A DNA stretch of 54,379 nt. Origin: a virus. The notes under the pieces were generated by a model. That model was given only the letters and a program-made list of their open reading frames with translations, made no database searches and was not told where the DNA came from. The position numbers were made by a program, and so were the translations under genes. Shown piece after piece: positions 2,460-54,379 of this stretch (position 1 is the first letter of the stretch; each line of letters begins with the position of its first letter). The stretch spans positions 1 to 54,379 of the IMG/VR virus record IMGVR_UViG_3300011625_000001; one strand, given 5' to 3'.

Positions 2460-2485
2460 TATTCCGTAGTAGTTGAAAATAGGGT

Positions 2486-2579
2486 GTTTAGGCTAGCAGT
2501 TGTCCTTTCAAACTAACCCCAGCGTCATAGCCTTGGTGAGCCATCACCTCACCAACTAGCTGATACCAGCTGCCTAAAC
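2486..2579 (-). ncRNA. Stem-closed structured element resembling 16S rRNA helices h11-h12 (function unknown)
   Basis: Lies in the intergenic gap 2460-2598. Closing stem GTTTAGGC (2486-2493) pairs with GCCTAAAC (2572-2579). The minus-strand core GTATCAGCTAGTTGGTGAGGTGATGGCTCACCAAGGCTATGAC closely matches the conserved gammaproteobacterial 16S segment GGATTAGCTAGTTGGTGAGGTAATGGCTCACCAAGGCGACGAT as I remember it. It includes the TTGGTGAG/CTCACCAA hairpin. Confidence 0.4.
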
Positions 2580-2598
2580 GATTGATGGTTAAGTGGTA

Positions 2599-3090
2599 TC
2601 AAGCCAGCTTGCGCTCGTCACAGTAAATAGGCGTGTTATCTTTATGCCATGCTTTATGACATGGATCGCACAGCCACATAACATCCAGCAGCTTGTTGTA
2701 GTCGCAATGATGACCGTGTAATACAGCCTCTTGCTGGCAAGTCTCGCAACAAGAAGGTCTGACTATCTTGCCATCACGTAATGCGTTATTAACTGCATTG
2801 TGTGCTTGGCGTATAGTTGGATTGCGCTCAGCGTAAGCACGTTTGGCAGCGCCTGCCTTTCGTTGTCCGCGCTCAGTCTGCTGGTAATCCTTACGCGCTT
2901 GCACGCGGTCAGGATTGTTGGCGCGTTTGCGGTCAAACTCTAAGTAGTAATCAAGGTTTTTAGCCCGATTAGCTCTCACCTTGGCGCGGACACATTCTTT
3001 GCAGCTACCATTTATACCGTCCTTGCGGATAGATGACTGATAAAAGTCATCCGTCGGCTTGGAGGTTTTGCAGTATTGGCAATTAATCAC
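2599..3090 (-). CDS. HNH (His-Me finger) endonuclease
   Basis: Cys-rich N-terminus. C-terminal HGHHCDYNKLLDVMWLCDPCHKAWH is an HNH motif. Confidence 0.75.
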   Translation of the reverse strand: MINCQYCKTSKPTDDFYQSSIRKDGINGSCKECVRAKVRANRAKNLDYYLEFDRKRANNPDRVQARKDYQQTERGQRKAGAAKRAYAERNPTIRQAHNAVNNALRDGKIVRPSCCETCQQEAVLHGHHCDYNKLLDVMWLCDPCHKAWHKDNTPIYCDERKLA

Positions 3091-5755: not shown

Positions 5756-5784
5756 ATAATATCGTGATTACGATATAATGTAAA
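5756..5784 (-). promoter_or_regulatory. PL-like early-left promoter
   Basis: On the minus strand: TTTACA (5784-5779), 17-nt spacer, TATTAT (5761-5756). The spacer is occupied by the 18-bp operator palindrome. Confidence 0.6.
5759..5776. promoter_or_regulatory. Repressor operator (OL-type), near-perfect palindrome ATATCGTGATTACGATAT
   Basis: 18-bp palindrome sharing the TATCGT-N4-ACGATA half-sites with the three sites between cI and cro. Confidence 0.65.
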
Positions 5785-5801
5785 CCCCTGAAACGACATT
5801 A

Positions 5802-5819
5802 TTAACGTGTTTACGATAA
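5802..5819. promoter_or_regulatory. Second OL-type operator (degenerate)
   Basis: TTAACGTGTTTACGATAA matches the operator consensus at about 14 of 18 positions by eye. A further half-site ACGATAT lies at 5843-5849. Confidence 0.45.
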
Positions 5820-5858
5820 AAATAGTTAAATATAATACTAATACGATATTTTGAGCAC

Positions 5859-5884
5859 AAAAAAACCGCTAATGAAGGCGGTTT
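5859..5884 (-). terminator. Intrinsic terminator T3 of the island operon
   Basis: Minus strand: stem AAACCGC/GCGGTTT, loop CTTCATTA, then a run of 7 T. Confidence 0.7.
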
Positions 5885-5921
5885 GGTGGGAAAGCAATAT
5901 GAAATTAATTGTTAATTTACG

Positions 5922-5943
5922 AAAAAACCCGCACAAAGCGGGT
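5922..5943 (-). terminator. Intrinsic terminator T2
   Basis: Minus strand: CCCGC-TTTGT-GCGGG followed by TTTTTT. Confidence 0.7.
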
Positions 5944-5962
5944 CGGGTGTAGGATAGGCGAT

Positions 5963-52674: not shown

Positions 52675-52905
52675 GATTGTGGAGCAATACCTTAGTACAA
52701 CTTTACGGGTATCAGTCGGATGACTCATGTGATGAGAATAGCCTGTAAGGAGTCACACATCATCTGCCAGTGTTTTTGCATGTCGTAGCACCGCTGGTCT
52801 GACTACGTCCGCTCTATCTGGAAGCCCAGCCCTAGCGACTAGGGATTACACCTCAAAGAATATATCAGGTAATACAAAATAGTATAACATAACAATAATT
52901 GTTAG

Positions 52906-54332: not shown

Positions 54333-54379
54333 TGGTGGGCCCAGTAGGACTTGAACCTACGACCAAAGGATTATGAGTC
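54333..54379 (-). tRNA. 3' part of a tRNA with CAU anticodon (Met or Ile2), truncated by the window edge
   Basis: The reverse complement reads GACTCATAATCCTTTGGTCGTAGGTTCAAGTCCTACTGGGCCCACCA. It contains anticodon loop CTCATAA, T-stem GTAGG/CCTAC, T-loop TTCAAGT and an encoded CCA. The 5' half lies beyond 54379. Confidence 0.75.

Follow-up and report, generated by a model that had tools for sequence, protein, structure and literature searches.

Autogenous leaders of ribosomal protein (r-protein) operons, among them those of S15, S8/spc, L1 and L20, are mRNA operators that mimic rRNA (Meyer 2018, as cited in PMC10931766). Like the element described below, they are RNAs outside the ribosome that imitate the rRNA site of an r-protein in both sequence and structure; they lie before the gene of that same protein, are usually loose structural mimics and have a narrow distribution. 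To our knowledge, mimicry of an rRNA protein-binding site is known only from such cellular leaders. Phages encode stable RNAs that act as substitutes or decoys, including sets of tRNAs, RNA anti-CRISPR repeats and pseudo-ToxI, which copy host or defence RNAs and so saturate or bypass a factor; we know of none that imitates rRNA. ROOL and GOLLD are large, ornate, phage-associated non-coding RNAs found near tRNAs. The put antiterminator RNAs of HK022 and HK639 are a further point of comparison, as one class of the copies described here (class B) shares the same untranslated pL leader.

The window, by which we mean the whole stretch of DNA analysed, is the 54,379-nt viral record IMGVR_UViG_3300011625_000001. 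We studied the gap at positions 2460–2598 on the minus strand, the gene-carrying one, which is bounded by an HNH-type endonuclease gene (2599–3090) and the next open reading frame (ORF; 2064–2459). The first-pass annotation had proposed that this gap specifies a stem-closed RNA resembling helices h11–h12 of 16S rRNA, and the minus-strand sequence that it quoted was exact. Its description of the gap as free of ORFs holds on the minus strand (none of 40 or more amino acids), but a 42-amino-acid plus-strand ORF (2593–2721) clips the upstream edge by 6 nt; this ORF lies outside the element itself. R1, a covariance model built from nine copies of the window's class (class A), matched the element over its full length (1–94; 116.1 bits, E = 1.3e-30). 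The functional unit is 2486–2579 and not the entire 139-nt gap, and it is oriented in the same direction as the flanking genes. Its parts are as follows.

2486–2579, minus strand: whole element, a 94-nt three-way-junction RNA (P1, P2, P3); the only match to the R1 model in the window
2572–2579, minus strand: 5′ strand of P1, GUUUAGGC, which pairs with 2486–2493 in the MFE fold
2486–2493, minus strand: 3′ strand of P1, GCCUAAAC, from the MFE fold and the 66-sequence alignment
2521–2567, minus strand: P2, the mimic of 16S helix h11, with 3 basal bp, a GCU/GGC helix, internal loops and an apical hairpin
2533–2555, minus strand: apical hairpin of P2, UUGGUGAG, loop GUGAUGG, CUCACCAA, from sequence and the MFE fold
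2495–2518, minus strand: P3, a hairpin at the position of h12, with GGU-U-AGUU, loop UGAAAGGAC and AACU-GCU
2580–2590, minus strand: conserved 5′ flank, AACCAUCAAUC, common to all window-like copies and to locus L148
2461–2485, minus strand: conserved 3′ flank, ACCCUAUUUUCAACUACUACGGAAU, running into the next start codon

The MFE fold of the element region has an energy of −35.5 kcal/mol (z = −2.6). In this fold, the ends pair over 8 bp (GTTTAGGC/GCCTAAAC) as initially proposed, but the AGC/GCT extension suggested for this stem is peculiar to the window and is lost in relatives; the core hairpin forms over 8 bp (TTGGTGAG/CTCACCAA), as had been read from the sequence. Pairing in P3 is kept by compensation, with GGU/GCU in the window versus GGC/GCC in Shewanella phage Y11, and the P3 loop of the window is h12-like. 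Another hairpin in the MFE fold, AGCUG/CAGCU on the 5′ side of P2, was rejected; relatives read AACUG, CACUG or GACUU there. The element is bordered by CAATC and ACCCT without duplication, phage coding sequence lies within 30 nt, and the element ends around 27 nt before the next start codon. The 3′ flank is retained in relatives despite a differing downstream ORF. Neither a promoter nor a terminator adjoins the element in the window, and ARAGORN called no tRNA or tmRNA anywhere in the window.

The likeness to 16S h11 was borne out by the bacterial small subunit (SSU) rRNA model of Rfam, RF00177, which aligned 2522–2566 (minus strand) to model positions 238–282, corresponding to h11, with a posterior probability of 1.00 throughout (29.3 bits, E = 8.3e-7 in a 461-nt search). 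The gathering score of RF00177 is 50 bits, hence the absence of this match from a gathering scan of the whole window. Across that scan and a scan of the region at E ≤ 10, SSU rRNA alone fitted the element; weak matches to mir-200, SNORD2, RAGATH-12 and RNAIII in the region were judged to be noise. A chance match had been considered unlikely, and the 32-nt core AGCTAGTTGGTGAGGTGATGGCTCACCAAGGC, which occurs once in the window, never appeared in 100 shuffles with three mismatches allowed. The longest run identical between the element and the real 16S genes that we fetched was 36 nt (Gemmatimonadota MAG L159). The echo of h12 reported downstream of the core also held up, as the alignment to real 16S runs on into the h12 loop, where the element has GTTTGAAAGGA and 16S has GTCTGAGAGGA; mimicry of h12 is only partial, with a P3 loop sequence that varies across classes.

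The element is nevertheless not an SSU rRNA gene: the match is limited to model positions 238–282, with no adjacent 16S domains. It shares strand sense, secondary structure and universally conserved unpaired nucleotides with 16S h11–h12 (together with the h7 stem), but it is cut from the rRNA context, closed by P1, which has no counterpart in 16S, and encoded in phage operons. Helices h8–h10 are absent, h7 is absent or reduced to a stub, and the stem and often the loop of P3 differ. It is thus, as the first-pass annotation had concluded, a sense-strand, stem-closed, non-coding 16S h11–h12 mimic that falls outside the standard annotated classes. In other phages the SSU model covered h11 and h12 (the nearest phage, Shewanella phage Y11, L001; model 237–308, 41 bits), positions 106–311 (Streptomyces phage Omar, which at 68.4 bits exceeds the gathering score) and positions 113–308 (a Yersinia phage). 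The model's assignment of the upstream region in the Yersinia phage to h7–h10 is doubtful; the closing stem there, GGCUUUGG-ACUGGC, holds only h11 and one hairpin. In some classes, a short hairpin and GGUGAAUG precede P2, equivalent to the base of h7 and the conserved 16S GGUGAGUAAUG.

The same module was found at more than 130 phage and prophage loci. BLAST searches of phage genomes recovered the complete element from Shewanella phage vB_SbaS_Y11 (91% identity), where it likewise occupies an intergenic gap, and the h11 core from Yersinia phage vB_YenM_30.14, Jedunavirus of Klebsiella and E. coli (SBP and ZCEC13), Stenotrophomonas Schitoviridae (Piffle, Paxi and Pokken), Serratia phage Muldoon, Cronobacter phage VP8 and Streptomyces phage Omar. 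Moraxella phage Mcat16 and several small unannotated ‘phage’ records were set aside as true 16S contamination. A degenerate pattern scan of IMG/VR yielded 113 loci, and a looser pattern, with N in the stem, revealed further variants and classes among the matches listed. In the phage loci screened, the universal 16S site at 338–357 lay downstream of the core only in a public record, L003 (Moraxella Mcat16), which is a true 16S gene; without this site, essentially all of the others are mimics and not rRNA genes. One locus, L010, was excluded from the mimic set as 16S-like by eye. It lies at a contig start (positions 1–110; IMGVR_UViG_3300009914_000008), follows 16S h11–h12 to around position 330 and then diverges; it may represent either a mimic of greater length or a chimeric assembly. 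When species-representative bacterial genomes were scanned, most matches proved to be real 16S genes carrying the same core (the 338–357 test identified 14 of 18, and L165 looked like true 16S by eye), so the scan says little about prevalence; copies were also present in Psychrobacter genomes. Matches on plasmids were mostly plasmid-borne rrn operons, with the exception of a prophage-like region of pKPN-498. All loci carried a single copy, and the copies fell into classes by their flanks and genomic context.

Class A (that of the window): early recombination/replication operon of Shewanella/Psychrobacter-type prophages
Class B: pL leader of enterobacterial lambdoid prophages
Class C: Jedunavirus and the prophage-like region of K. 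pneumoniae plasmid pKPN-498
Class D and L148: between the tail-tube and tail-chaperone genes of Psychrobacter-type myovirus prophages
Class E: Streptomyces phages
Classes F and G: tRNA clusters of Stenotrophomonas and Serratia phages

The family is thus broad: the phages that carry it include temperate and virulent ones, belong to several morphotypes and are spread over at least two bacterial phyla. Scored against around 60 other loci of different classes, R1 gave 30–120 bits, with full-length matches in nearly every class. The closing stem P1 differs class by class and reaches 15–17 bp in classes other than that of the window. L148 has the 5′ flank AACCATCAATC in common with class A, but it lies in a tail operon and has a different P1; cassette-like movement between genomic contexts is real. 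Class D copies (L074, L084, L116 and L120) have an extra outer stem outside P1, UGGCCA/UGGCCA, with a compensatory variant, UGACCA/UGGUCA.

Pairing and covariation were consistent with selection on the folded RNA. Among 44 distinct phage copies, 95% of cells in P2 pair, with double changes at 9 of the 15 pairs and a covariation score of 0.36 versus 0.137 in shuffles, none of 500 of which reached it; slid controls paired at 31–49%. R1 yielded an alignment of 66 copies (A4), from which the junction counts were taken instead of from a MAFFT alignment (A1) that misplaced the 3′ end of class D. Across the whole junction, 95.5% of cells pair (28–48% in slid controls) and 23 of 29 pairs show double, compensatory changes, including every pair of P1 (8/8) and of the P2 base and P3 (7/7), although these pair counts lean toward the structure because pattern searches supplied the sequences and A4 is itself a fit to the model. 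The apical stem of P2 varies among other phages (AUGG/CCAU, UAGG/CCUA and GUAGG/CCUAC). The positions that are invariant among the phage copies, AGCU.G..GG...GGU.A.GGC..CC...G.GA.GA, coincide with those that the Rfam SSU consensus gives in upper case as universally conserved, and the unpaired universal h11 nucleotides stay the same in phages as far apart as those of Streptomyces and Shewanella, even as the stems drift. Judged from sequence, drifting stems around fixed loops are the signature expected of an RNA surface that is read by a conserved partner. The first-pass annotation had named both recurrence of the element in relatives and compensatory changes as checks. We place the probability that these copies constitute a selected, structured family of rRNA-domain mimics at about 0.9.

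In the window, the element is probably co-transcribed with genes for a Sak4-like annealase, an SSB, the HNH endonuclease, two hypothetical proteins and a DnaQ-like exonuclease. No r-protein gene was found near the element in any context examined. The HNH gene is absent beside the element in Y11, L033, L040, L067, L095 and L169; in L095 the SSB gene directly precedes the element and other relatives differ, indicating that the HNH gene is a later insertion in the window. This gene (HNH/endonuclease VII-like, phrog_2340; 2599–3090, minus strand) is an insertion polymorphism, and other relatives carry different small genes. Farther upstream on the minus strand, at 5756–5944, two terminator-like hairpins (5944–5926 and 5884–5863) are followed by a promoter-like TTTACA-17-TATTAT (5784–5756); the early operon to which the element belongs probably begins here.

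Other classes place the module in RNA genes. In Klebsiella phage SBP it forms the 3′ domain of an RNA gene of around 480 nt, antisense to baseplate genes, with a promoter-like TTGACA-17-AATTAT with TG and a strong intrinsic terminator; the homologous region of pKPN-498 spans around 700 nt. A 480–700-nt non-coding RNA gene is accordingly present in both a virulent Jedunavirus (SBP, L006 1632–2156) and a plasmid-borne prophage-like region (pKPN-498, L174 ~2050–2780), and Rfam identified nothing in this large Klebsiella RNA beyond h11. In Stenotrophomonas and Serratia phages, the module lies among tRNA genes on the tRNA strand. Possession of its own gene in SBP and placement on the tRNA strand suggest a module with the behaviour of a stable RNA. 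The copies of classes C, F and G resemble ROOL and GOLLD in being domains of 400–700-nt phage non-coding RNAs, some of them in tRNA clusters, whereas the window copy is just 94 nt and SSU rRNA is the sole Rfam 15 family to match any of the copies.

Class B copies occupy the pL leader, in the early left operon beside recombination, Gam and Kil genes, where they lie inside a long closing stem downstream of an HK639-type putL-like antiterminator RNA and an intrinsic terminator. The annotated putL-like RNA (L124 1575–1700) is separate and upstream; the mimic, downstream of the terminator, occupies a distinct slot, and the window copy lies outside the pL leader altogether. In HK639 the same stem-closed slot (L124 2100–2200) holds a 70-nt tRNA-like gene (2124–2193; called as tRNA-Ile gat by ARAGORN), and in CobraSix (L171 ~750–850) and KO-TP1 (L173 ~835–995) it holds other folds. 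One slot that houses a 16S mimic in some phages and a tRNA-like gene or another fold in others looks like the RNA equivalent of the hotspots known for protein ‘morons’ or counter-defence. The module also resembles the phage RNA decoys in lying beside phage tRNA genes and in being exchanged for the tRNA-like gene of HK639. The module is probably a stable, trans-acting RNA domain that phages exchange.

The element at 2486–2579 (minus strand), probably transcribed within the early recombination/replication operon, folds as a three-way junction, with the copy of h11 as its long arm (P2) and a second arm, P3, at the place of h12. The family as a whole comprises widespread, mobile, phage-borne mimics of a subdomain of the 16S 5′ domain, around positions 106–311 (h7 stub, h11 and h12), and we propose that these RNAs present the h11 surface to a host factor able to recognise h11 in every bacterium. 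That factor would most likely be the primary 30S assembly protein uS17, perhaps together with bS16 at the base of P3. Helices h7 and h11 are tied to the S17 binding domain, and S16 to the base of h12 (PMC5591316); uS17 is also named as the protein associated with h11 and as one of the primary binders (PMC12825303). A decoy for an h11-binding factor, with S17 and S20 as candidates, was already among the suggestions of the first-pass annotation; it remains the best reading as far as uS17 is concerned, which these two sources tie to h11, and S20 gained no specific support. The coincidence of the phage-invariant positions with the universally conserved SSU positions fits a universally conserved partner, and the reproduction of the h11 subdomain with its universal nucleotides makes uS17 binding, possibly with bS16, the best-supported mechanism. 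Against it, the window copy lacks the h7 stub, which is part of the S17 domain, the P3 loop sequence varies across classes, and in related lambdoid phages the pL slot accepts a tRNA-like gene or other folds, so the slot could matter rather than uS17 binding. A leader responding to S17 is mentioned neither in PMC7247131 nor in the 2024 review PMC10931766, from which S17 is absent, and we found no extraribosomal or phage-related role of uS17 in the literature. On balance, uS17 is a possible partner of the mimic RNA, at odds somewhat below even.

An RNA that bound uS17 could act as a protein-binding decoy or as a recruitment site. It might titrate free uS17 from new 30S assembly, or the phage RNA might take up uS17 as a cofactor or a protector. 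The full version of this proposal, in which a mobile cassette of gammaproteobacterial and actinobacterial phages is a working uS17-binding domain of 16S rRNA and its capture of uS17 stops new host 30S assembly or builds a phage RNP with the r-protein as cofactor, is tentative and, in our estimation, would more often than not prove wrong.

A different kind of decoy was also considered, in which the RNA serves as a competitive substrate for an rRNA-directed nuclease or modifier, such as a toxin or defence effector, that attacks h11 of 16S or pre-16S rRNA. Phage tRNAs replace or decoy tRNAs attacked by defence nucleases, and the module is mobile, clusters with phage tRNAs, swaps with the tRNA-like module in HK639 and, in the early left operon with its recombination, Gam and Kil genes, occupies a place that phages use for counter-defence. 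Some copies also follow the sequence of the host type: those of Streptomyces phages read AGCTTG, and certain enterobacterial ones have UAGG/CCUA together with GGUAACGGC. However, we found no h11-directed toxin or defence enzyme in the literature, where the rRNA toxins listed act at the anti-SD, the decoding centre or the sarcin–ricin loop, and the RNA would face competition from tens of thousands of ribosomes. Moreover, most enterobacterial copies differ at 4–5 positions from what we take to be the E. coli h11 sequence, although some match closely. We consider such a nuclease decoy unlikely.

A module that acts in cis and binds no ligand, for example a processing site, a 5′ or 3′ stabiliser or an insulator between cistrons that reuses a very stable rRNA fold, would account for the lack of a promoter or terminator of its own in the window, for the position of the element between cistrons with conserved flanks that include the ribosome-binding region of the next gene, and for the acceptance of other folded RNAs in the same slot; the 15–17-bp closing stems of other classes resemble RNase III-type excision stems. 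Stability of the fold alone, however, does not require invariant unpaired nucleotides in the loop and internal loops of h11, and class C is a free-standing gene, making this explanation improbable as well.

Regulation in cis by an r-protein, with free uS17 as a read-out of ribosome synthesis that binds the leader and tunes the downstream early genes, is quite improbable. The location of class B in the pL leader, between the putL-like antiterminator, the intrinsic terminator and the first ORF, and the short distance of around 27 nt from the window element to the next start codon are compatible with such a sensor, but P1 does not overlap the ribosome-binding site, the downstream genes vary among relatives, and copies in tail operons, in tRNA clusters and as free-standing genes fit no single cis-regulatory logic.

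The first-pass annotation had also raised a MITE-like insertion and a recognition-site memory of the adjacent HNH endonuclease, both now very unlikely. The element does have a terminal inverted repeat, it occurs as a cassette with the flank AACCATCAATC in two genomic contexts, and an HNH gene lies next door in the window. Against a MITE, there is a single copy in the 54-kb window without target-site duplication, and the terminal repeat covaries as an RNA helix, with a P1 sequence that differs between classes, and is not kept as a transposase site; against a memory, the HNH insertion is specific to the window, and relatives have SSB or other genes directly upstream. A neutral relic of recombination with a host rrn operon, likewise suggested at the outset, or contamination or mis-assembly has a negligible probability. 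Real 16S genes of several phyla do share the identical core, and true 16S contamination exists in public ‘phage’ records (Moraxella phage Mcat16). However, the module is only 94 nt long, lies among phage genes in over 130 independent assemblies or isolates, persists across many lineages of phages with every helix showing compensatory changes, and is closed by a stem, P1, that 16S lacks; the departure of most enterobacterial copies from the E. coli h11 sequence also speaks against a relic.

Returning to the family of 16S mimics, it differs from the r-protein leaders in being a near-exact sequence copy with no adjoining r-protein gene and in occurring in phages of several phyla. What is new is a copy of a 16S subdomain that is near-exact, mobile and carried by phages; the principle of rRNA mimicry for r-protein binding was already known. 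The module is apparently undescribed: we found no description of a phage 16S mimic in the literature, in which coverage of subscription journals was thin and absence is unproven. The family was probably overlooked since rRNA-like matches are filtered out as contamination, and such elements can trigger partial 16S calls in viral contigs, as in phage Omar (68 bits). A copy of this kind points to an unrecognised interaction between viruses and the ribosome, and the 94-nt element is a small RNA that can be tested directly for uS17 binding. Were uS17 capture true, this would be the first virus-encoded mimic of an rRNA domain and a new viral route to manipulating ribosome biogenesis.

Several ‘hypothetical protein’ coding sequences have been annotated across the element and are probably mis-annotations, namely vBYenM3014_026 in the Yersinia phage (gp026; L002 1744–2406), Pokken_044 (gp044; L009 1925–2107), UPU16079 in ZCEC13 (L005 2007–2201) and WP_004152448.1 on pKPN-498 (L174 2507–2749). 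Phage Omar (L004) also encodes two type II hammerhead ribozymes, at 1717–1781 and 2113–2175 (47.8 and 44.6 bits, above the gathering score), 1–1.5 kb downstream of its 16S mimic. A second structured phage RNA in the window, a Proteo-phage-1 RNA (RF03044), lies at 52762–52844 on the minus strand (44.5 bits, above the gathering score). Finally, the window end cuts a tRNA whose 3′ part (Rfam model 29–71) occupies 54336–54379 on the minus strand, where ARAGORN makes no call; this partial tRNA may mark the prophage attachment site.
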